A DNA stretch of 64,000 nucleotides from an uncultured Chloroflexia bacterium (GCA_963700595.1 CAVOYE010000016.1:2732-66731); one strand, 5' to 3'; positions 22,966 through 63,440 are shown, counted from the stretch's first letter. Notes: a model not told the origin generated them from the sequence alone. Numbers and translations are program-made.

Positions 22966-24427
22966 ATGGCAGACAACTTCGATTTGATTGTCGTGGGCGC
23001 CGGGAGCGGCGGGATAGGCACCGCACTTGCTGCAGCGCGGATGGGCAGCAACGTCCTGCTCATCGAGAAATCAGGTGTGCTGGGCGGCACTGCCGTTCTC
23101 TCCGGAGTCAGTGTCTGGGAGATGGGGGTAGGCGGTACAGGTATCCCCTTTGATATTTACCGGCGGTTGAAACCAATCCCGGATGCGATAGGCATTTATT
23201 CGTTTGGCAGGCACTGCCTTTGGCCTGGCGCAGATGAGCGCTCAACCTTACCCCGGCGGTGAATCGATCATCGACCCGCAGCGCCAATATCCGGACAGCC
23301 TCCGGCGTTACGGCGCCCGTTCTATGCGGGAAGATGAAAGCTTTGTCCGCGCCCAATGGCACGGCGTACCCTTTGAACCGATGATTTACACCCGCGTCGT
23401 TGAAGAAATGCTGTATGAAACCGGGCACTGCGCCGTCCTGAAAAACACCCATGTGCAAAACGTCGAAGGTGAGAACGGCATTGTCACAGCGTTAAGTCTT
23501 GCTGACGGGTCCAGCTTCACGGCGCAAACGGTGGTTGATGCGACGGGGGATGCCGCGATCGCACGCATGAGTGGTGCGGAAACCCTTTTCGGTCAGGAAT
23601 CACGATCAGCTTTCAATGAACCTGATGCGCCACTTGAAAAAACCAACCATCTCAATGGGGCGACGCTCATTTACCGCGTGACACCGCGCCCCACCCCAAG
23701 AATTGATAAGTCTCCCTTTACGCTGCAGAATACGTGCTGGTGGTCTGAGCAGTTCCCGGTTGCCAGCATCACCCACTTCCCGTGCGGTGATCTGCATGTC
23801 AATATGCTGCCCACGATGTCCGGGATTGAAGTTATGGAGATGGGTCCGGATAAAGCCTACCGCGAATGCCAGCGCAGGATCTATGCCCATTGGCGCTATC
23901 TCCAGAATTATGATGAAGCCTTTCGCTATTACCAGATGCAGTGGATAGCGCCTCAACTGGGATTGCGGGAAACCTGGCGGATCCAGAGTGAATATATACT
24001 CACCGAGAACGACCTGCTGGCTGGATTATCAGGACAGAAACACACGGATATCATCACCATCGCCGACCACGCGATGGATACGCATGGTCAAAATACGGGG
24101 CGCGCCGGATGCGGAGAACTTCGCGAACCCTACGGCATTCCTTACCGCTGTTTGATCCCCAAAGGGATGCGGAATCTGTTGGTGGCTTGCCGGGCGTCGG
24201 GTTTCAGCTCACTGGCAGCATCCAGCGCCCGTCTATCGCGCACGATGCTGCAGTTGGGACAGGCTGCCGGCACAGCGGCAGCCCTGGCACAAAAGCGCAG
24301 CATACCAGCGTCTGAAGTGCCACCAGAACAGCTCCGGGAAGCGCTTCGCAGACAGCACGTGCAATTGGAGCATCCGATGCCGGATGCATTATTAACTTAT
24401 CTGACTGAGCAGGAAACAGCGGATTAA
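22966..24427 (+). pseudogene. FAD-dependent oxidoreductase; apparent frame break between about 23215 and 23260
   Basis: N-terminal dinucleotide fold DLIVVGAGSGGIGTALAAA. That ORF stops at 23262. A 407-aa continuation in another frame, overlapping from 23204, carries the rest of the protein. Confidence 0.7.
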
Positions 24428-24542
24428 GAGCAGGCTTGTGCCCACATCTATGAAATGCGCACGCTACCCACTATGGATGATGACATATTAACATAGCTCC
24501 GATGCTGAGAAAGTAACCTAGCGGGTACAAGGGTTCGTTTCG

Positions 24543-24800
24543 TTTTGGTGGAAAATACAAGATATCACCCATAAATAATACGAACGGCAAGGTAGGTGGC
24601 GGTGCGGTACAACTTTGGTTTAGCTGTCCACGTAGCTTCCCGCACCGCCACTTTTAAAAATGGGGTATCCAGTTTGGCTGCGCCAAACTGGATACCCCAA
24701 AGAAAAAAGCGGCGCGAAAGTCTTCATGGGAAAAGCTGGGTGATTATTTTGCGCCGTATCTGGCATCGCCCCCAGGATTGAGACCCCATCTTGGGGTTTT
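24543..24800 (+). repeat. structured non-coding repeat, copy X (candidate small RNA or cis-regulatory element)
   Basis: 5' module gttttggtggaaaa..atcacccataaa..gtggcggtgcgg. Hairpin 1: 24596-24607 pairs with 24640-24651, 32-nt loop. Hairpin 2: 24661-24677 pairs with 24683-24699, loop ctgcg. A third aaaaaagcggcgcg segment follows. A small terminator-like hairpin plus tttt lies at 24783-24800. Homologous to copy Y. Confidence 0.6.
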
Positions 24801-24959
24801 GCCTGAATCGCACCCGGGGACGTGGCACATTTTATTATCACGGCACTCTGATATAATATTGACATCGAGATGGTTCACCATCGAAACGCTGTGATTCCCG
24901 GACAAAATATACTTGTCTGATCATAACTGGTCCATTTATGATCATTATTATGTCTACAG

Positions 24960-28213: not shown

Positions 28214-28217
28214 GTTT

Positions 28218-28650
28218 CTACATCTGATCGCGGATATCGCTCATCCTGCGCAGAATGGCAGTGATATGGGCATTTTCCATCATGCTTGCTAAATGCCCTT
28301 CGACGAAGCGGTCGTTGCGGAGATGGGTGGTGAGTAATCGCCGCAGCGTTAGTAAATCTGCCTGTTGCAGTGCTTCCGGATCAGCTATGTAGCGCTGCGC
28401 TTCTTCCTGCCACTCCCCCCAGTTAAACACATAGACCATGTCCTGATTCGATAAAGTTCCTGAATAAATGCGATAACTTGATCGTTGTAGGCATAAAAGG
28501 GGAACTGCCCCTCCGGCATATGCCATTCGCCAAAGACGTAACCGGGTTGGGAAAAGATGGGCAGATAACGCAGGACGGCATCGAGCTGTTCCGGTCCGAT
28601 TTCTGGTGGTTCCTCTGTATCAGGCAAATGACGCCTCTTTCCTGCATGAA
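28218..28650 (-). pseudogene. small conserved hypothetical protein; apparent frame break near 28449-28451; start uncertain
   Basis: Two overlapping ORFs join by a 1-nt shift into one plausible protein: ..LRYLPIFSQPGYVFGEWHMPEGQFPFYAYNDQVIAFIQELY followed by NQDMVYVFNWGEWQEEAQRYIADPE..DRFVEGHL.. Confidence 0.45.
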
Positions 28651-29119
28651 ATGGAATTATGGGTAAGTATAGGTCATGGTAGTGTAGACGCAACCGGGAT
28701 GCGCCGCAGGGGTGCCTGTCACATTTTTGCATACAGCTGAACACAGGATCTACGTTCGTTTACAAATCATTCTGTAGTCTAGGGCTCCCCTGTACTCAGG
28801 GGCTGTGCCCGTTCTGCTTGTAATGCCATCTGATTATGTCTATTATCTATCGCGGAACGCCCACGAGGGGCTATGCTACAAGCGTCATTTGTGCAGGCTG
28901 TTTGCATCCGTCGCACCTTTACGGAATAGCGGTGGACACCCGCACCGCTTCAGGGACTCAACCCTTTTATTTAGAACGGATGCTATTACACCGTAATATG
29001 GCAGTTTTTCCCGCAATGGGGTACAATACGGACCAAAACCGGAAAGAGCGTGATTCACAGTCGCCCATACAGATTTGAGGCAGGCTGAGCCAGCAAAAAC
29101 GCTCCAAGGAGATTGACGG

Positions 29120-30422
29120 ATGCGTAATCAACCCGTTCCACGGGCATTTCATATTATGACCAAACCCCGCGGGCCCATATGCAACCTGCGGTGCGACTAC
29201 TGCTATTACCTGCCCAAAGCCAAGCTATATCCGGAAAGCAGTTTCGTGATGACGGATGAAGTGCTGGAAAGTTTTACCCGGCAGTATATCGAAGCGCAGC
29301 ACGTTCCCGAGGTCACCTTTGGCTGGCAAGGGGGAGAACCCCTCCTGATGGGCCTTGAATTCTACGAGCGCGCCATCGCCATGCAGGAAAAATACACCCC
29401 GCCAGGGGTAAAGGTCATCAATACGCTGCAGACAAACGGAACGCTGATCGATGACGACTGGGCAGCTTTCTTCCACGACCACAACTTCCTCATCGGTTTG
29501 AGCCTGGACGGACCCCAGGCTATGCACGATGCTTTCCGCGTCGATGCCGGCGGGCAACCCACCTGGGAAAAAGTGATGCGCGGGCACGACCTGCTGCAGA
29601 AGCACGGCGCGGAGTTTAATATTCTCTGTACCGTGCACAGCGCCAATGCCCCCCACCCGGTTGAGGTTTACCGCTTCTTCAGAGACGACGTGCAGGCGGA
29701 ATTTATGCAGTTTATCCCCATTGTCCGCCGGGATAACGATACCGGGCACCAGCAGGGGGGCGACCTGACCCACCATTCCGTCACCGGAAAACAGTACGGC
29801 GATTTCCTGATCGGGGTGTTCGACGAATGGGTCCGGCACGATGTCGGCAAGGTCTTTGTCCAGATTTTTGATGTGGCGCTGGCAGCCTGGGTGGGACAGC
29901 GTCCCGGGTCTCTGCGTTTTTGAGCCGACATGCGGTCTGGGATTAGCCATGGAGCACAACGGCGACCTTTACGCTTGCGACCACTACGTGGAACCCCAAT
30001 ATCTGCTGGGGAATATTATGGAAACACCGCTTATCGACTTGGTCGCATCGGAAGAACAGCGCACATTCGGTCAGAACAAGCTGACCCAGCTTCCGCAGCA
30101 GTGCATTGACTGCGAGGTGCGCTTTATCTGCAACGGCGGGTGCCCCAAGAACCGCATCCTGGTCACCGGCGATGGCGAACCCGCGCTCAATCACCTGTGC
30201 ACGGGCTACAAATCGTTCTTTATGCATGTGGACCGCCCGATGCGGATGATGGTCAACGAGCTGCGGCAGCGCCGCGCACCGGCGAATGTGATGCAGATCA
30301 TCAACGGAGAAGACGAAGCGCTGGAAAAAGCCTTCGCCTCCGCGGGGCGCAACGACCCGTGCCCGTGCGGCAGCGGGAAGAAGTTCAAGCTGTGCCACGG
30401 CAGAACCCCACGGGGAGTTTGA
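29120..30422 (+). pseudogene. anaerobic sulfatase-maturating enzyme (radical SAM/SPASM) with C-terminal SEC-C motif; apparent frame break near 29906-29911
   Basis: Radical SAM motif CNLRCDYC. Downstream Cys clusters (CGLGLAMEHNGDLYACDH, CIDCEVRFICNGGCPKNR) lie in the second frame. The tail is CPCGSGKKFKLCHG. RBS aaggag upstream. Confidence 0.8.
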
Positions 30423-30434
30423 CGGTTGAGATCG

Positions 30435-30492
30435 CCCGACTATTGTTTCCGGAGGACTATTGTTTTTTTGAAAGAGAGAAACAATAGTCGGG
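30435..30492. terminator. long hairpin 3' of the anSME gene with an internal duplicated arm
   Basis: cccgactattgttt (30435-30448) pairs with aaacaatagtcggg (30479-30492). The loop holds a second gactattgttt (30455-30465) followed by ttttttt. Confidence 0.5.
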
Positions 30493-31118
30493 GCTCTATC
30501 CCAGCACCGCACCTTCATTTACGATCACTTTAATTTTCCTGTTACAGAATAGGATTCTACCGCATGGCATGCCGGAGTCTTCTAGTGAATGCCATATGCA
30601 CGACACCGTAAAGTGCTACCTGCCAATGCAGGAATGCCAAAAGATTCCACCAATGATAACGTATATTGGGCTGCCTACACCTTCATGGTAGAACATGTTT
30701 TCTCATTTTCAAGGGGCGAGGTAGGGTGGTGTAACATAAATTCTGTGATTTTACGAAAGAGATAAAGTGGAGTTGAAATAGGTACCGACTTATTAATGTG
30801 TCGATATTGATCACGGGTAAAATTACAACGTTTTAATGTTAAGTACTAAAAGCTATCTGCCCACCAGGATTCGAGCCTGTAACCGATCGGACCTGGGTTC
30901 CAGTCCCCGGCGGCTACAAAAATGACTAATAAGAATGTTAGCATTTGTTCCTCGGTTCTGAAATTTCGGTTTAACTAATCGCATTGTGCGATCTGGCCTA
31001 TGTCATCAATGAAGTCTTAAGGCAAAATTTCGGCCAATTTGATTTCAAATGCTATCTAGTTAGCTCATCTACTGCAGCAGATTACAATGTAGTCAGCGAA
31101 GAGTGTGAAAGGGTTGCG

Positions 31119-31874
31119 CTATATCCTTTTATGTATGAAGCTGCCCACATTGTCCCAATATGCGTTATTCCAAGCGAAACTTGGTTGATATGTTACGACA
31201 AACAACGTTTTGCCTTTCTGAGTAAAGTATATGAGTTTCCCTTTGTATATCTCATATCTGTGGTTTGAGTTGAATTTAATTCCCACAATTTGTTCCCAAA
31301 TCTGCATATACTCAGCAGACCATCCGTAAAACAGTACAAGCTTTGGATAATGGGTTGATATCCGTGCCTTCAGAGACTCAATGCGTGTTCGTTTGAGTGT
31401 TCTCTTATATATTTCACGGCTATGCAATATGTTTAGGTCTGTCCACTTATTGTAGTGCCACGCATTTGCCGAGGGTGATGGAAGCGGGAATATATCAATC
31501 AAACAATTACTAGAGTCCTGACGTCCCCAACTTTTTGACTGGTGTGCCTTCAAGTCTTTAGCCGTATAGACTTTGTATGGGTTTTTACTATTGAGATATA
31601 CACGAATCAACTTTGCCCAAGTCCTCTGAAGTCTAATGTTCCCTTCAAAAAACCTTTCGTATTCGTAACCAGGAATACCTTGATGATATTCATAGTTGTC
31701 GACTAATTCTTTTACGCCAAGCGCCTTCCAACTCCTCAGTCGTTTCGACACCTCGTCAATTTCGTTGCCCCCACCTTCCTCCATAGCAACGAACCAGAAA
31801 TCTGATTCGTATTGGCCAAAGCCCCAGAAGTTCTGAAGGCGATTTCGAAGTATTTCTTTGTCAAGTAGTTGCAT
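31119..31874 (-). CDS. hypothetical protein in AT-richer region
   Basis: 251-aa ORF with lower GC than its surroundings. The segments FVAMEEGGG and FPLPSPSANAW are faintly reminiscent of UDG-superfamily motifs, but this is unverified. Confidence 0.5.
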   Translation of the reverse strand: MQLLDKEILRNRLQNFWGFGQYESDFWFVAMEEGGGNEIDEVSKRLRSWKALGVKELVDNYEYHQGIPGYEYERFFEGNIRLQRTWAKLIRVYLNSKNPYKVYTAKDLKAHQSKSWGRQDSSNCLIDIFPLPSPSANAWHYNKWTDLNILHSREIYKRTLKRTRIESLKARISTHYPKLVLFYGWSAEYMQIWEQIVGIKFNSNHRYEIYKGKLIYFTQKGKTLFVVTYQPSFAWNNAYWDNVGSFIHKRI

Positions 31875-32318
31875 AGTTTCTCCTTGCTGCCAGCCAGATT
31901 AGAATAAGCAATCATACTTGTATTCCATTAATACCACAATTCTCCCCGTCAACGGTAATTTAAAATTAATGAGGTACGATCTGTTTCTATGTCAGGAGCT
32001 CGTAACCAAATGGTTTGGGGGCCAAATCCTATTCGGCGACAAAACAGGGGTAAATAATGGGTAGAAGTGTGACAAATTGAGGTGAACGCGGCATAAAAAG
32101 CGTTGAAATATACACGTAAGAAGGCCCTACAGGATGCGGTGGTTGGCACAGTGTGCCTCCCATGCCTGAAATCGACCGGTTATCAGTCTCATTCCAGACT
32201 ATACACACCGACTATTTATGTAAGTCGGTTCGAAATAGAGAAAAATGTGATATTACCTGGATGACAGGTAGTTGCGCTGCAGGGACGGGAGTGAAAGCCT
32301 CCGCTGCTCATGCTCGGT

Positions 32319-32443
32319 CGGCGGCGCGTTCGGCGAACGCGCCCTACCGACGTTAACCTGCGCGGAGATAGCGACTAAGCGGTATGGAAAGCCGGTCACG
32401 ACTACAAACAGGATACTTCTAGAGAAACGGACTAGAGTTGGCA
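32319..32443. repeat. hairpin-containing non-coding repeat, copy A
   Basis: 125 nt, about 90 percent identical to copy B. Starts with the 9-bp-stem hairpin ggcgcgttc-ggc-gaacgcgcc (32323-32343). Confidence 0.85.
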
Positions 32444-32815
32444 CAACCTGTGCGAGGTACGAGACCCTTCGACTGCGTCCCGCAAAGGCGGCGGGACTCC
32501 GCTCAGGGTGACGAGGAATCTCGATTTTTGTGCGTTTCTGCAAGACCAGGTGGTAGATCGGCGCATATATGCGCAGGCTGCGCTACTAATTAACAACATT
32601 TATAATGAGCATAATACAATATATAAACAAGTAAAAATGCAGACGTGTCAGTGTAAAATGCTCAGAGTTAATTCGCGTTTTAACGGCGGCCCCGCCGCCG
32701 TCGGTTACTCGGGATGACAGGTTTGTTAGGGTGGTGGTTTGGTTTGCGTACCATACTGTCGGAATAAATACTTACTTTCACAAGTCTCTATTACATACAC
32801 GATACCTGGTTTCAG

Positions 32816-32955
32816 ATGGCTGTATGCAATACCGGCGGCGCGTTCGGCGAACGCGCCCTACCGAGGTTAACCTGCGCGAAGATAGCGACTTAGCGGTATG
32901 GAAAGCCGGTCACTACTACAAACAGGATATTCGAGAGAACGGTCAAGAGTTGGCA
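32816..32955. repeat. hairpin-containing non-coding repeat, copy B
   Basis: Collinear with copy A from 32833. Shares a further 17 nt upstream (atggctgtatgcaatac) with partial copy C. Confidence 0.85.
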
Positions 32956-32999
32956 GTATCAGGAAGTGTGCCAGATATAAACAGCTTCTCTATTCGTTC

Positions 33000-33043
33000 A
33001 TGGCTGTATGCAATACCGGCGGCGCGTTCGGCGAACGCGCCCT
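33000..33043. repeat. hairpin-containing non-coding repeat, partial copy C
   Basis: atggctgtatgcaataccggcggcgcgttcggcgaacgcgccct is identical to the first 44 nt of copy B and then diverges. Confidence 0.85.
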
Positions 33044-33072
33044 CCCAGAGAGCGGGGAAGGTACGGTGAAGT

Positions 33073-33108
33073 TATAAAAACGGGGCAAGGTGTGGACCTT
33101 GCCCCGTT
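33073..33108 (-). terminator. rho-independent terminator of the E1/E2 operon
   Basis: 12-bp GC-rich stem (33079-33090 / 33097-33108) with a 6-nt loop. On the minus strand it is followed by a tttttat tract, 56 nt after the E2 stop. Confidence 0.75.
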
Positions 33109-33163
33109 GAAATCCTCAGAAAATCTGTTTATATAAAAAGCACCGGTGCTGATAGCATCAACT

Positions 33164-34544
33164 TTACGCCAGCAGCAGGTAGGGTTCCTCGATCAGTTTC
33201 TTGATGTACTGCAGGAAACGCGCACCAGGCGCGCCATCGACCAGGCGGTGATCGACCGTCAGGCTTAACCACATCATCTTGCGAATGGCGATTTCACCCT
33301 TATAGACGGCGGGAACAGGTTTGATCCTGCCGACACCCAGAATCGCGGTCTCGGGGAAGTTGATGATCGGTGTAAAGGCATCGATGTCCATCATGCCCAT
33401 GTTGGAAATGGTGAAGGTGCCGTTGGTCAACTCGTCGGGGAGCGACTTTCCGGCGCGACCCCGCGCGACCAGATCACGCATCTCGCGGGAGATATCGAGC
33501 AGTCCCTTCTGATCCACATTCTGGATATTGGGGACCATCAATCCGCGATCCGTATCGATCGCCAAACCGATATTGATCTCGGCAAGTTCGACAATGGTGG
33601 AGCCCACCAACCGCGCATTGACGTACGGGAACGCGCGCAAGGCTTTGGCGACCACTTTGAAGAGCAGGTCATTGTAGCCCAGGTTAAAGCCCAGTTCATC
33701 GGCAAGGCTGGCTTTGAGCTGCTCGCGGAGGGCGACAAAGTCCGTCGCATCGACCTCCATGGTCGAGTGTGACCGGTGCGGTTTCCATATGGCTCTGGTG
33801 CATCCGCTGGGCGATGATACCCCGAATGCCGCTGAGCGGCGTTTCTTTCAAGGCGGGCTGCGCTGGGGCAGGCGCCGCAACCACAGGTTGGGCTGCTGCC
33901 ACAGGCAGCAGGTGCAGCTTCTGGAACGGCAACCGATGCCTGGACATCGCCTTTCGTGATCCGTCCCTGCGGACCGGTGCCGGCAACTGTCCGCAAATCC
34001 ACACCTAACTGCTCCGCGACACGCTGGGCAACCGGCGTCGCTTTGGGCGCTGACGCCATATAAGCCACGACATCTTTCTCAACGATGCGTCCCTCGGGAC
34101 CGCTGCCTGCCACCATGGACAGGGTAACGCCCTTATCCGCTGCCAGTTTCCGGGCGCGGGGAGAGACAAAAATACGACCGCCTGAGGCTGCCTGTGCATC
34201 CGAAACGGGCTGCTCCGCAGCAGCTGCCGGAGCGTCTGCTGCGTTACGGCTTCCGCAGCAGTCACGGGGGCTGCGCCAGAGGACACCTCGTCCAGCGGTT
34301 CGTCGGCGGTCCTGGTGATGTACGCCACAACAGTCAAAACATTGAGCAGTTCCCCTGCTTCAAAGAGGATTTTTCGCAGGAAACCTTTCCGGGTCGCTTC
34401 GACATCGAGGACGGCTTTATCGGTTTCAACGGTAAATAATACGTCACCGCGTTCAACCTGGTCACCTTCGGCTTTTAACCATTCGACGATACGTCCTTCT
34501 TCTACGGTTTGCCCTAATTTGGGCAGTATCACTTCATAAGCCAT
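33164..34544 (-). pseudogene. 2-oxoacid dehydrogenase E2 (dihydrolipoamide acyltransferase); three apparent frame breaks (about 34250, 33910, 33765)
   Basis: The lipoyl domain (TVETDKAV), two peripheral-subunit-binding domains (IFVSPRARKLAADKGV..; ATPVAQRVAEQLGV..) and the catalytic domain (..SLTVDHRLVDGA) lie in four different frames but in the correct order. Confidence 0.8.
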
Positions 34545-37491: not shown

Positions 37492-37588
37492 GTTATTTCC
37501 ATTTACTTTCGATTTCTTTCATTGTATAATAAATCATAAGCGATGTCAAGCAGTTTTCGACGATATATGACCAAATGAGTCGGGTTCA

Positions 37589-37660
37589 GTTTGGTGAAAT
37601 ATGCAGGTGATCACCCATAAACATTACAATAGAAACGGGAAGATAGGTGGCGGGGCGGGA
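37589..37660 (+). repeat. truncated copy Z of the structured repeat (5' module only)
   Basis: gtttggtgaaatatgcaggtgatcacccataaacattacaatagaaacgggaagataggtggcggggcggga aligns with the 5' module of copy X. No hairpin partner follows. Confidence 0.6.
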
Positions 37661-37722
37661 TCTTTTATTTTATTGCAGCTTGATGTAAAATCACAGGACA
37701 CTCGACAGAATGGAGAGAAACT

Positions 37723-60368: not shown

Positions 60369-60544
60369 TTTGAAGTCTCCTAAATATCTCGAACTGTAAA
60401 TATTTCATAAACAGGTGAAAATTCATATACTTTTCTTGCACTTACAGTTTAATCCATCTCGCGAACCTTGGGAAGCGACAGCCAGAATACGGGTGCGCGT
60501 CACATTTTTGCACAAACCAAATCAGACCAGGAATGAACACCTTC

Positions 60545-60800
60545 CATCAAAAAAATGCGGCGCGGAATGCCTGCTTTTTGCATCCCAAGTTGTCTCCCGC
60601 GCCGCATTTTTAAAAGAGGGATTTGGCGGTTGGCAGCCAACCGCCAAATCCCAATAATTCTGTGGCGGGGTGGGAATCTACCATGCATTCACAAGCGACC
60701 TGTTCCACCCCGCCACAGAATCCTGCTACGGGCAATCCATTTATGTGATGGTAAATTGCAGTGTTTCCACACTGCTTAGCGTTGCGGAAAAGTGACGCAT
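60545..60800 (-). repeat. structured non-coding repeat, copy Y (candidate small RNA or cis-regulatory element)
   Basis: Three long hairpins. First: 60657-60673 pairs with 60705-60721, 31-nt loop. Second: 60618-60633 pairs with 60637-60652, 3-nt loop. Third: 60551-60565 pairs with 60597-60611, 31-nt loop, followed by a U7 run on the minus strand. Read on the minus strand it is collinear with copy X. Confidence 0.6.
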
Positions 60801-61113
60801 CCCCCCAGAATACGATAAAGATCGCAGCCATCAACGTCCCTTGCAGCATCAACGTCACAGGAACCCCCCATGCATCAGCCATAGCACCTGCCGGTATAGT
60901 GCCCAAAGGCATGAAGCCAATCGTCATCAAATACATAGCCATCATACGCCCGCGATAGGCATTTTCGGTATTCATCTGTACCAGGGTTTGGCTGGAGATA
61001 ATAATGCCACGCCGGGCTGCACCCACCATTAGCAAGCACAGGAAAGCCAGCACAAAATCGCGAGAATTGGAAAAGCCAACCAGGGAAAGGCTCATTACGA
61101 ATCCACTGACCAA
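60780..61113 (-). pseudogene. 5'-truncated MFS transporter remnant
   Basis: Encodes only the last approx 110 aa (about four TM helices) of an MFS protein and parallels the C-terminus of the adjacent full-length MFS gene. The listed ORF runs on into the hairpin element because no stop intervenes. Confidence 0.5.
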
Positions 61114-61143: not shown

Positions 61144-62520
61144 TTATGAACTTGCACCGGAAACTGATGGCTCCAATACAGATTCCTGGATGGTTTCACC
61201 AGAAGCAGCATCACTCTCTTGCAAAGCCTTGCTCAGGCGATACTCACGGATGGTAGGTGATACAAAAAAAGCGATCATAGCGATTGCACCAGCCAGCCCG
61301 GCAAAAATGATCGTCATCGTACGCGGACCGAACAAATCTGCGCCAATGCCAGCGATAAACGCCCCCACCGGCATCAACCCGGACCTTAGACTTATGATAC
61401 CCGTCACCCGACCGCGCAACGCGTCGGGAATTGATAGCTGCAGCAGCGTCTGATTGGTCGTCAGAAAGATCATTTCGAAAAACCCCGCCAGTGCCAGGCA
61501 CCCGAGCGCCATCCACAGTTCTGTGCTCAACGCAAAAGCGATCAACGAGAGGCTGAGTAACAACAAGGATAACAGTTGAAGCAACCCCCGGCGGTCCAGT
61601 TTGCCGAGAGAGGCGGAAACAAAACCTCCGACAATGCCTCCAATGCCTATCGCGGAAAGGAGCGCGCCCAGGGTATCCGGACCTCCGGAAAAGATGTCCT
61701 TGGCATAGATTGGCGTCAGTGCATTGAAATTGGGAATGATGAGAAGGGGCAGCAGCCAGTTCATCAACATGAATGCCAGGGTTGCAGGTTGTGAGACAAC
61801 ATACTGCCATCCTTCTTTGAAACTGCCCCGTGTCCTGACTTTCGTTGCACCATGTTGCTCTTCCGGTAATTTGAGCTTGACGACGGTCAGGATAACGAGT
61901 GCATAGGCAACGGCTTGCACGAAAAAATTTCCGGCAGGACCTAACCATAGAATCAGAAAACCACCGATTGCCGGTCCCAAAGAACGCATAACTGCCCAAC
62001 CAGTTTGCACAAGCGCTACAGCGCTGGGCGATTGCGAGCGCGGTACAATTGAAAATACGACCGTTTGACGCAGTGGTATGCTGACAGCTTGAGCAATACC
62101 CCCCAGAAGGCTGAAAAGCAACAGAGGCCAAACGACGTTGGGATTCCCCAGCAGGATGAAGCCGAAGCCAAAACTGATGGCGAACAGCCAGAGGCTGGTG
62201 GCATAGAGCAATCCGCGCCGGGGCAAGCGGTCGATAGCCACACCCGCGATGGGCGTCAAACCCACCGTGGCAATAGAACGCACCAGATTGAGCGTTCCCA
62301 ACATAGCACCAGAGGAGGTCATATCGTAAACCAGCCAGCTCAGGGTAACTTGCTGAATCCACTGCGCAGCATTTGAGAACGTTGTACCGGTAAGAAACCA
62401 TGCAAAACTGGGCACTCGGAGCACGGCAAACGCACCATTTTGTTCTGCTGATTCAGGATTGGCTTTTCTTCCGGTGCGTAAATCAGATGTCCTGGTCTTA
62501 TCTTCATTTATGGTTTCCAT
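61144..62520 (-). CDS. MFS transporter
   Basis: About 12 TM helices with an MFS loop motif (DRLPRRGLL). ATG at 62520 avoids overlap with the upstream gene. Confidence 0.85.
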   Translation of the reverse strand: METINEDKTRTSDLRTGRKANPESAEQNGAFAVLRVPSFAWFLTGTTFSNAAQWIQQVTLSWLVYDMTSSGAMLGTLNLVRSIATVGLTPIAGVAIDRLPRRGLLYATSLWLFAISFGFGFILLGNPNVVWPLLLFSLLGGIAQAVSIPLRQTVVFSIVPRSQSPSAVALVQTGWAVMRSLGPAIGGFLILWLGPAGNFFVQAVAYALVILTVVKLKLPEEQHGATKVRTRGSFKEGWQYVVSQPATLAFMLMNWLLPLLIIPNFNALTPIYAKDIFSGGPDTLGALLSAIGIGGIVGGFVSASLGKLDRRGLLQLLSLLLLSLSLIAFALSTELWMALGCLALAGFFEMIFLTTNQTLLQLSIPDALRGRVTGIISLRSGLMPVGAFIAGIGADLFGPRTMTIIFAGLAGAIAMIAFFVSPTIREYRLSKALQESDAASGETIQESVLEPSVSGASS

Positions 62521-62534
62521 AGCAGAGTATTGGG

Positions 62535-63440
62535 TCAAGCCTGAAACGCATTATCAATAAAATCCAGCACCTTATTGATGTTTTCAGATGTATTAAACAG
62601 AGCTTCCCCATGACCGTGTTTGGCATTCAACATGATTTCATAGGTCACACTATCCTGACCATTCGCAGCAGCAAGCTTACAGGCGAAGATAAGGGAACCC
62701 TGATAGGGTACTGTACTATCTGCATTTCCGTGCTGGATTAGCATCGGGGGCAGTCCTTTGCGGACGTAGGTCTCCGGGTTAGCTGCACGAACGACACCAG
62801 GTATCTCTGTAATTTGCTGGCCGAGGATGCATGATTCGGGAGACTCCGGTCCGCTGTGGGCAGATTCTGGAGTCTGCTTAAAACCTGATGCCTCCAGTTG
62901 TTCGTCCATCAGAAGAAAGTCCGTGGGTGGGAACCAGGCGACAACCGCCTGTACTGCTGACGTGTATTCCGCATTGCCCAGTGACGGGTCGTCCAGTTCG
63001 TCGATGCCTTCGGATACCCCGGCCATAAGCGCCAGATACCCTCCGGCAGACCCTCCCCACACAGCAATCTGATCTGAATCGAAGTTGTGTTCTGCGGCTT
63101 TCGCACGAACCCAGCGGATAACGGCTTTCATGTCCTGTACCAACGCCGGGAAGATCGCTTCTCCACTCATACGGTAGTTGATGGACACGACCGCGTAACC
63201 GCGATGCAAGCCTTGCAGCGTTGGCGTGAGTTGCATATCGCGCTTATCACCACCCCGGAACGCCCCACCGTGTACCGATATGATAACCGGGAAAGGACCA
63301 ACACCTTCATCAGGCCAATAAATATCCAGTGCCTGCGCCTTGGAAATGTCAGCATACGCTATGTCGAATTTTTTGCGTTTAATGTAGCCGGTATTGGCTT
63401 TGGGGATGCGGTTGTTGTCAGGCTGTGGACCAGTCTCCAT
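62535..63440 (-). CDS. alpha/beta hydrolase (carboxylesterase/lipase-like)
   Basis: Oxyanion motif HGGAF and nucleophile elbow GGSAGG. Confidence 0.8.
   Translation of the reverse strand: METGPQPDNNRIPKANTGYIKRKKFDIAYADISKAQALDIYWPDEGVGPFPVIISVHGGAFRGGDKRDMQLTPTLQGLHRGYAVVSINYRMSGEAIFPALVQDMKAVIRWVRAKAAEHNFDSDQIAVWGGSAGGYLALMAGVSEGIDELDDPSLGNAEYTSAVQAVVAWFPPTDFLLMDEQLEASGFKQTPESAHSGPESPESCILGQQITEIPGVVRAANPETYVRKGLPPMLIQHGNADSTVPYQGSLIFACKLAAANGQDSVTYEIMLNAKHGHGEALFNTSENINKVLDFIDNAFQA

Follow-up and report, generated by a model that had tools for sequence, protein, structure and literature searches.

A Probable MITE-Like Family of Small, Hairpin-Rich Mobile Repeats in an Uncultured Chloroflexota Lineage

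Four related sequences, here called X, Y, Z, and V, probably form a single family of MITE-like, non-autonomous DNA transposons of ∼180–315 bp in an uncultured, Anaerolineae-type lineage of the Chloroflexota; we put the probability of this reading at roughly 80%. X, Y, and Z lie in the 64-kb stretch of DNA that was analyzed (hereafter, the window), and V lies in L193, a contig from a relative. The family is new, whereas the kind of element it represents, a small structured mobile repeat, is already known. An earlier note on the window had described X and Y as three-hairpin noncoding elements under selection as RNA, with a 5′ module that might carry promoter or operator activity, and it had named a MITE origin beforehand as something to check. 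That check gave a positive answer: Y has a target-site duplication and inverted ends, and its site is empty in a close relative. The closest named homologues are found in Anaerolineae metagenome-assembled genomes; the source genome is of the Chloroflexota type and not that of an enterobacterium. Table 1 collects the copies and their parts.

Table 1. Coordinates and parts of the copies. Positions refer to the window, except for V.
Copy	Feature	Position	Strand	Description
X	Full element	24531..24815	+	285 nt; left end GGGTTCGTTTCG, right end GAATCGCACCC (reverse complement, GGGTGCGATTCA)
X	5′ module GTGGAAA...ATCACCCATAAA	24548..24575	+	∼75% shared with Z
X	Hairpin 1	24596..24651	+	12-bp core stem GTGGCGGTGCGG/CCGCACCGCCAC; 32-nt loop ending GTAGCTTC
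X	Hairpin 2	24661..24699		Perfect 18-bp stem, the central palindrome; T-run on minus strand only
X	Hairpin 3	24709..24757	+	GCGGCGCGAAA/TTTTGCGCCGT, 11 bp, two G-T pairs included
X	Small terminator-like hairpin ACCCCATCTTGGGGTTTT	24783..24800	+	Just inside right end; T-run; no call in terminator scan
X	Locus			FAD oxidoreductase upstream, SulP-STAS-rhodanese transporter downstream (Pfam)
Y	Full element	60491..60804	-	∼313 nt; left end GGGGATGCGTCACTTTTCCGCAAC, right end GTTTGTGCAAAAATGTGACGCGCACC(C)
Y	Upstream target-site duplication CGTATTCTGG	60805..60814	-	Exact 10-nt repeat, where homology to L071 breaks
Y	Downstream target-site duplication CGTATTCTGG	60482..60491	-	Followed by displaced last 11 codons and stop of MFS-type ORF
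Y	Hairpin 1	60662..60716	-	GTGGCGGGGTGG/CCACCCCGCCAC; loop ends GTAGATTC
Y	Hairpin 2	60618..60652	-	Perfect 16-bp stem, then TCTTTT; terminator-like on element strand
Y	Hairpin 3	60550..60611		17-bp stem between A- and T-runs; inverted copy of hairpin-1 module
Y	Locus			MFS transporter ORFs upstream, MBL-fold hydrolase downstream (Pfam)
Z	5′ fragment	37582..37665 (3′ limit approximate)	+	Left end GGGTTCAG and 5′ module kept, with the left arm of hairpin 1; truncated thereafter
Z	Locus			DeoR regulator upstream (divergent), Class II aldolase downstream (Pfam)
V	Copy in L193	L193 5745-5925		181 nt; single hairpin-1 module with GTAGATTC loop motif as in Y; GGGTG... ends
W	Possible solo right end TGCAAAAATGTGACAGGCACCC	28710..28744	-	34-nt match to Y right end

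Results

Insertion Sites and Element Ends

Y occupies a junction that is uninterrupted in L071, the closest relative contig, whose MBL protein is 96% identical to that of the window. The MFS-to-MBL gene order is kept there, and alignment of the junction shows that Y is absent. Homology between the window and L071 stops after ...ATCGTATTCTGG and restarts ∼313 nt further on, past a second exact CGTATTCTGG. This sequence flanks Y on both sides as an exact direct repeat of 9–10 bp; the first C of its downstream copy may be part of the end of Y, in which case the duplication is 9 bp long. When Y and one repeat are removed, the interrupted ORF ends in ...IFIVFWLSLPKVREMD and a stop codon, and its L071 counterpart ends in ...IFGTLWLSRTKVRYLD and a stop codon; the two are of equal length, with the stop at the same position. 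As it now stands, the MFS-type ORF runs into Y for 68 additional codons. The two ends of Y form an imperfect terminal inverted repeat of ∼26 nt (GGGGATGCGTCACTTTTCCGCAAC vs. GGGTGCGCGTCACATTTTTGCACAAAC). Together, the 9- to 10-bp duplication, the inverted ends, and the base-precise empty site mark Y as a transposon insertion, the decisive result of the analysis. The ORF that Y struck is itself a C-terminal MFS fragment of ∼100 codons (60805-61113; Pfam MFS_3 profile positions 289-389). Immediately before it, and separated from it by two in-frame stops, comes a complete MFS_3 gene (61144-62538); the fragment is probably the remnant of a tandem paralogue.

X and V also have counterpart loci that lack them, although the relatives concerned, at 73–79% protein identity, are too distant for base-precise reconstruction of the empty sites. 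X is absent from both L193 and L208, whose FAD proteins are 79% and 73% identical to that of the window. The FAD-to-SulP gene order is kept in both, and the spacer between the two genes measures 197 nt in L193, ∼320 nt in L208, and 532 nt in the window. V sits in the DUF4380/FAD divergent spacer of L193, a position that is non-orthologous to those of the window copies, and the corresponding locus in the window is without it. An exact 8-bp repeat, TGCTAACA, flanks V on both sides. No clear target-site duplication accompanies X, whose flanks GGGTACAA and GGGGACGT match at 5/8 positions. Z is a truncated copy, a 5′ fragment in the DeoR/aldolase divergent spacer, and neither a right end nor a target-site duplication is recognizable for it. 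The inverted ends of X and V are short and imperfect, matching at 9/12 positions. All of the recognizable ends (8/8) begin GGG(T/G), and right ends read as the reverse complement begin GGGTGCG in three cases out of four.

In L208, an unrelated hairpin insert, TTCCCGCGAAGGCGGGAA (L208 2170-2230), occupies the FAD–SulP spacer at about the position that X has in the window, which suggests that small elements land in this spacer repeatedly.

Homology among the Copies and Searches for More

By blastn, X and Y show almost no similarity and no significant match, and their global alignment is 54% identical. These figures would suit a reading in which two unrelated clusters of intergenic terminators, X and Y, resemble each other by chance. 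That reading is almost certainly wrong. A single-sequence nhmmer search of the 64-kb window with X retrieved Y (E = 7.2e-8) and Z (E = 3.1e-7), with no other significant match; module order, end sequences, and the hairpin-1 stem and loop motif are shared; and an independent copy came from another genome, V having been retrieved in L193 (E = 7.7e-7) by a profile built from X, Y, and Z, with V itself not included. Thus, the collinearity of X and Y claimed in the earlier note reflects real homology. Against the family profile, Z scores E = 2.2e-13.

The copies turned out to extend further than had been proposed, on the limits given in Table 1. The 5′ module, which had been described as common to all copies, is well shared between X and Z (∼75% over 70 nt), but Y resembles it loosely. 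Z is a 5′ fragment that retains the left end and the left arm of hairpin 1 in addition to the 5′ module.

Within the window there are two complete copies, X and Y, together with the fragment Z and a possible solo end, W; V is the single copy found in ∼100 kb of sequence from the relatives. No copy was present in further relatives L068-L072 and L204-L210. Across genome contigs, the pattern ATCACN{0,2}ATAAAN{15,35}GTGGCGGNGNGG gave 67 matches, at most one per genome, which by our own estimate is about the chance number; the two inspected, in L031 and L058, are unrelated (a coding region and a tRNA gene). Among the matches listed for a GC-rich hairpin-1 pattern in metagenome contigs, all were GC-rich hairpins or coding sequence, and none was X- or Y-like by blastn. 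Scans of viral contigs with either the right end or hairpin 1 plus its loop motif yielded nothing or chance matches, and no copy came from Escherichia coli genomes or from plasmids. The concatenated six-frame translation of X and Y found no protein homologue, spurious ORFs within other copies included, among 5.8 billion sequences; the stop-free segments of X are not those of Y, and no ORF is conserved.

The possible solo end, W, matches the right end of Y at 22/24 positions, including an exact run of 14 nt, with an nhmmer E of ∼1–4; it is suggestive of a solo MITE end. The surrounding region was also considered as a full copy or an autonomous element. It has no matching left end or hairpins nearby, and its neighboring ORFs, DUF6508 and radical-SAM, are without a transposase.

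In Rfam 15, no family reached its gathering threshold in the window, and an E-value threshold returned nothing but chance miRNA-type hairpin matches; this agrees with the earlier impression that the element does not look like a familiar RNA class. ARAGORN found neither tRNA nor tmRNA in the whole window, and on that result a tRNA-like or att-site origin of GTGGCGG...CCGCCAC was rejected. CCGCACCGCCA looks like a tRNA 3′ end, as seen in L058, and this likeness was treated as coincidence.

Flanking Genes and the SulP Promoter

X, Y, Z, and V all lie 58–145 nt upstream of a start codon and on the same strand as the gene, and AT-rich, −10-like motifs occur in the 5′ module. Such placement would be expected of a cis-regulatory leader, promoter, or operator module of the downstream genes. 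We consider this very improbable. Orthologous genes in the relatives do without the element. Y interrupts an ORF near its 3′ end and is bordered by a target-site duplication. The four downstream genes (SulP, MBL hydrolase, aldolase, and FAD oxidoreductase) are functionally unrelated, and Z and V lie in divergent spacers, where orientation is uninformative. The promoter scan called no sigma-70-type promoter in the 5′ module of X or Y; a loose, by-eye resemblance of this module to a sigma-32- or sigma-70-like promoter was set aside, since the scanner made no call.

The SulP gene, moreover, has a conserved promoter and leader of its own. Downstream of X, the window, L193, and L208 have in common a promoter of the extended −10 type, which reads CTGATATAAT or CTGTTATAAT, followed by the conserved SulP leader CACCATCGAAAC..TGTGA..CCCGGAC. 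Because both are shared downstream of X in all three, the native SulP promoter lies outside X, which adjoins it on its upstream side. The idea that the module acts as promoter or operator thus gives way to the finding that X and Y are insertions at loci that are empty in relatives. For the same reason, a location 160–180 nt upstream of a gene, once read as a sign of regulation, becomes a property of the insertion site.

At 24826-24912 of the window, the promoter CTGATATAAT and leader CACCATCGAAACGCTGTGATTCCCGGAC are conserved before the SulP-rhodanese gene of L193 and L208 despite 73–79% protein identity. This segment, which has no Rfam match, may be a cis-regulatory leader of the SulP-rhodanese transporter.

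Architecture and Folding

RNAfold predicts three long hairpins in both X (minimum free energy of −109.8 kcal/mol, z = −6.3 vs. shuffles) and Y (−122.1 kcal/mol, z = −11.5), as the earlier note had claimed. Folds of the forward and reverse strands are nearly the same in energy, the forward being slightly more stable (X, −119.5 vs. −114.4 kcal/mol; Y, −149.5 vs. −142.9 kcal/mol). When Y is folded as a whole element, its two ends pair together, a typical MITE trait.

Aligned with the reverse complement of the right half of Y, the left half shows 71% identity (score 64; shuffles, −0.3 ± 9.7). A covariance model built solely from hairpin 1 of X, Y, and V, termed R1, matches Y 60550-60610 with 32.9 bits (E = 4e-5) on the opposite strand and 16.8 bits on the element strand. 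What had been taken for a third arm in Y is, by this model, an inverted copy of the hairpin-1 module. Given this inversion and the identity between the two halves, the full element is a quasi-palindrome in which a central perfect hairpin is flanked by the hairpin-1 module on one side and an inverted hairpin-1-like module on the other, with a spacer and then an end beyond each module. Hairpin 1 is the best-conserved module of the family (73.8 bits with R1 in X), and its loop motif GTAGMTTC is conserved at the 3′ end of the loop in X, Y, and V.

In X the T-run after hairpin 2 is on the minus strand, and in Y it is on that of the element, so that hairpin 2 is terminator-like on opposite strands in the two copies; hairpin 3 of Y has A- and T-runs at both sides. 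From these T-runs and that of the small hairpin at the X end, X and Y each contain terminator-like structures in both directions.

GC-rich hairpins dominate the element, and the tetranucleotide GTAG, a tag of many REPs, is conserved beside the 3′ arm of hairpin 1. Both features recall hairpin-recognized elements of the REP/RAYT or IS200/IS605 type (REPIN, PATE), whose mobility depends on the recognition of DNA hairpins by a Y1 (HUH) transposase. For such elements neither a duplication nor inverted ends would be expected, but Y has a 9- to 10-bp and V an 8-bp duplication, and both have inverted-repeat ends. In addition, GTAG here lies inside the loop of a 56-nt hairpin and not at a hairpin base, where REPs have their GTAG or CGTC tag, and the present element is 5–10 times longer than a REP. 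An origin of this type is accordingly very unlikely.

Stem Covariation

The earlier note held that the stem sequences differ between X and Y yet remain paired, and the counts agree with it. Of 39 comparable pairs, 27 are unchanged, 9 are changed on both sides and still paired, 3 are changed on one side, to or from G-T, and none is broken. Six of the double changes fall in hairpin 2, two in hairpin 1, and one in hairpin 3. When V is added to the hairpin-1 alignment, 100% of the cells are paired and two pairs are doubly changed, a double-change count that is not significant by itself for the three sequences, being reached in 52/500 shuffles. Slid controls for the same alignment all drop to 32–72% paired. 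The non-Watson-Crick pairs in the stems are all G-T on the forward strand of the element (4/4), with no A-C pair among them, which is a weak hint of strand specificity.

Nine compensated pairs with none broken exceed what the neutral decay of a dead transposon would leave, so an additional constraint acts on the hairpins. To this extent the earlier observation of compensatory stem changes is upheld; selection at the level of RNA, by contrast, does not follow from covariation itself. The symmetry exists at the DNA level, the fold energies of the two strands are nearly equal, and a known mutational process, templated correction in quasi-palindromes, can also yield perfect stems. The intact hairpins amid drifting sequence may reflect selection on a folded transcript or on single-stranded DNA, or templated correction within palindromes.

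Taken further, selection on a transcript would make the family a mobile element with a functional structured RNA as cargo. The 5′ module would then be a promoter for a transcript of ∼150–200 nt that includes hairpin 1 and ends at the hairpin-2 or -3 terminators, and the stems would be kept by selection on the RNA, which might, for example, be an sRNA, bind a protein, or serve the element itself. The nine compensatory changes without a broken pair between X and Y speak for it, as does the strong conservation of hairpin 1 and the 3′ motif of its loop in X, Y, and V. The all-forward G-T pairs (p ∼ 0.06 without strand bias, by our own estimate) and the slightly more stable forward-strand folds point the same way. 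In V, the place of the CATAAA motif is taken by a perfect TATAAT, and in Y the terminator-like hairpins come after hairpin 1 on the same strand. Several observations nevertheless weigh against such a cargo: no sigma-70-type promoter was called in the 5′ module of X or Y, the motif and hairpin 1 are separated by anything from 20 to 37 nt, hairpin 2 of X is terminator-like on the opposite strand, and there is no Rfam match. Nearly equal fold energies on both strands also count against it, and hairpin 3 of Y, as an inverted hairpin-1 module, fits a DNA symmetry better than a single oriented transcript. On balance we regard an RNA cargo as unlikely. The fuller proposal, that the element is a mobile noncoding RNA gene with its own promoter, a hairpin RNA (hairpin 1 with its GTAGMTTC loop) under RNA-level selection, and terminators that define the transcript, is slightly more doubtful again; if it were true, the partner of the mobile noncoding RNA might be a host protein or the transposase of the element itself.

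Other Features of the Window

Three intervals of the window (22966-24427; 29120-30422; 33164-34544) hold genes that are split here and are single ORFs in L193. The FAD oxidoreductase is represented by 98 aa + 407 aa in the window and by 486 aa in L193, the radical-SAM/SPASM/SEC-C protein by 267 + 193 aa and 431 aa, and the 2-oxoacid dehydrogenase E2 by three pieces and 460 aa. These splits are either indel errors of long-read assembly or widespread pseudogenes.

Another repeat family, unrelated to that of X and Y, is found at 32302-33046. Two copies of 97 nt, 96% identical and 514 nt apart, are accompanied by a third, partial copy, and each repeat begins with the palindrome GGCGCGTTCGGCGAACGCGCC. 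They sit in a 2.7-kb stretch (30423-33163) with almost no long ORFs. The ORFs local to the repeats gave no Pfam signal, nor did any Rfam family score above threshold there; the only weak Rfam match nearby is to COG2827 RNA (33073-33147; 30.3 bits vs. a gathering score of 49.1). A decayed transposase was considered for this low-coding stretch and rejected, there being no Pfam signal.

Compared with L193, where the spacer is 195 nt, ∼900 nt are inserted between glpX and the radical-SAM gene (28214-29119). The insert contains a frameshifted DUF6508 gene on the minus strand, with W just upstream of DUF6508. An exact 18-nt string, AACGCCCACGAGGGGCTA, is common to the W region (∼28850-28870) and the DUF4380/FAD spacer of L208, and L208 440-640 has two copies of a GGGCCTTGTG...GAGATATACTG motif. 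The string and these motifs may represent a further small repeat family, the match being not significant (nhmmer E = 0.27).

Discussion

We propose that X, Y, Z, and V are copies of one MITE-like family that would be mobilized in trans. A transposase encoded elsewhere in the genome would recognize the imperfect terminal inverted repeats, whose consensus start is GGGTGCG, and staggered cuts at insertion would give rise to the 8- to 10-bp target-site duplication. The elements keep their hairpins intact while other sequence drifts, to ∼54% identity in the case of X and Y. The full-length form is the quasi-palindrome, and V is a form with one hairpin module. The most likely effect on the host is that every insertion would put a bidirectional intrinsic-terminator block into an intergenic region, as suggested by the several hairpins that precede T-runs in one or both directions. 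The promoters of the downstream genes are not supplied by the elements.

The features that define MITEs, which we take from Delihas 2011 (PMC3184786), can be followed through the family. The copies are small (X, 285 nt; Y, ∼313 nt; V, 181 nt), and they contain no transposase or conserved coding capacity. A terminal inverted repeat of ∼26 nt is present in Y, and those of X and V are imperfect and short. Target-site duplications flank Y (CGTATTCTGG) and V (TGCTAACA) and are not recognizable for X and Z. Empty and filled sites are found for Y, which is absent from L071; for X, which is absent from L193 and L208; and for V, which is absent from the window. For a MITE family, this one is unusually divergent, with four or five copies known and 54% identity between X and Y.

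No autonomous element with matching ends was found in the relatives, plasmids, or viral contigs searched, and no transposase domain was found among the ∼30 window ORFs run through Pfam or in the gene tables of the relatives. A duplication of 8–10 bp excludes derivatives of Tn3 (5 bp) and elements of the Correia (TA) and REP/IS200 (none) types. Together with ends that start with GG, it is compatible with insertion-sequence families such as IS1, IS256, ISAs1, or IS5/IS903, which we offer as a lead only.

These results may matter in several ways. First, they remove a false lead, since an apparent new class of gene-associated structured RNA is most probably a small transposable element. Second, they document a MITE-like family for a poorly studied, uncultured lineage of the Chloroflexota, a phylum for which our literature search met no description of a MITE-like element. 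Third, hairpins that stay perfectly paired while the primary sequence drifts provide a test case for distinguishing selection from palindrome-templated correction. Finally, the elements bring strong, bidirectional terminator-like hairpins beside promoters and can change the 3′ ends of genes, so annotation and operon prediction in these metagenome-assembled genomes should allow for them.

It is useful to compare the family with small bacterial repeats that have been described before. Like the bacterial MITEs Nezha of cyanobacteria, Correia/NEMIS of Neisseria, and IMU (PMC3184786), the present elements are shorter than ∼400 bp, have terminal inverted repeats and direct-repeat target duplications, lack a transposase gene, fold very stably with paired ends, occupy empty/filled sites among relatives, and are placed mostly between genes and close to promoters. 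They differ in having no sequence similarity to any element searched and in an interior of discrete hairpin modules, not one long foldback. The copies are far more divergent (54%) than those of recently amplified MITE families, and the duplication is 8–10 bp, as against TA for Correia and 5 bp for IMU.

The bcr1 repeat of the Bacillus cereus group is a mobile repeat with compensatory base-pair changes (PMC3184786), and it is alike in being small, in its short flanking direct repeats, and in its independent stem–loops kept by compensation. However, bcr1 is ∼155 bp long, has 5-bp direct repeats, belongs to the Firmicutes, and is known to be transcribed, whereas the present family has a longer duplication, other ends, and three to four hairpins. 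SPRITE, a terminator-like repeat (PMC3184786), is likewise dispersed, has a terminator-like hairpin as its core, and is thought to act on the transcripts of flanking genes. In contrast to SPRITE, the present copies lie upstream of genes, have several hairpins with terminator features on both strands, and possess clear transposon-type ends and a duplication. REPs and REPINs, mobilized by RAYT, share with the family GC-rich extragenic hairpins, a conserved GTAG nearby, and an arrangement in inverted pairs. Yet REPs are 20–40 nt long and have neither a target-site duplication nor terminal inverted repeats, both of which the present family has.
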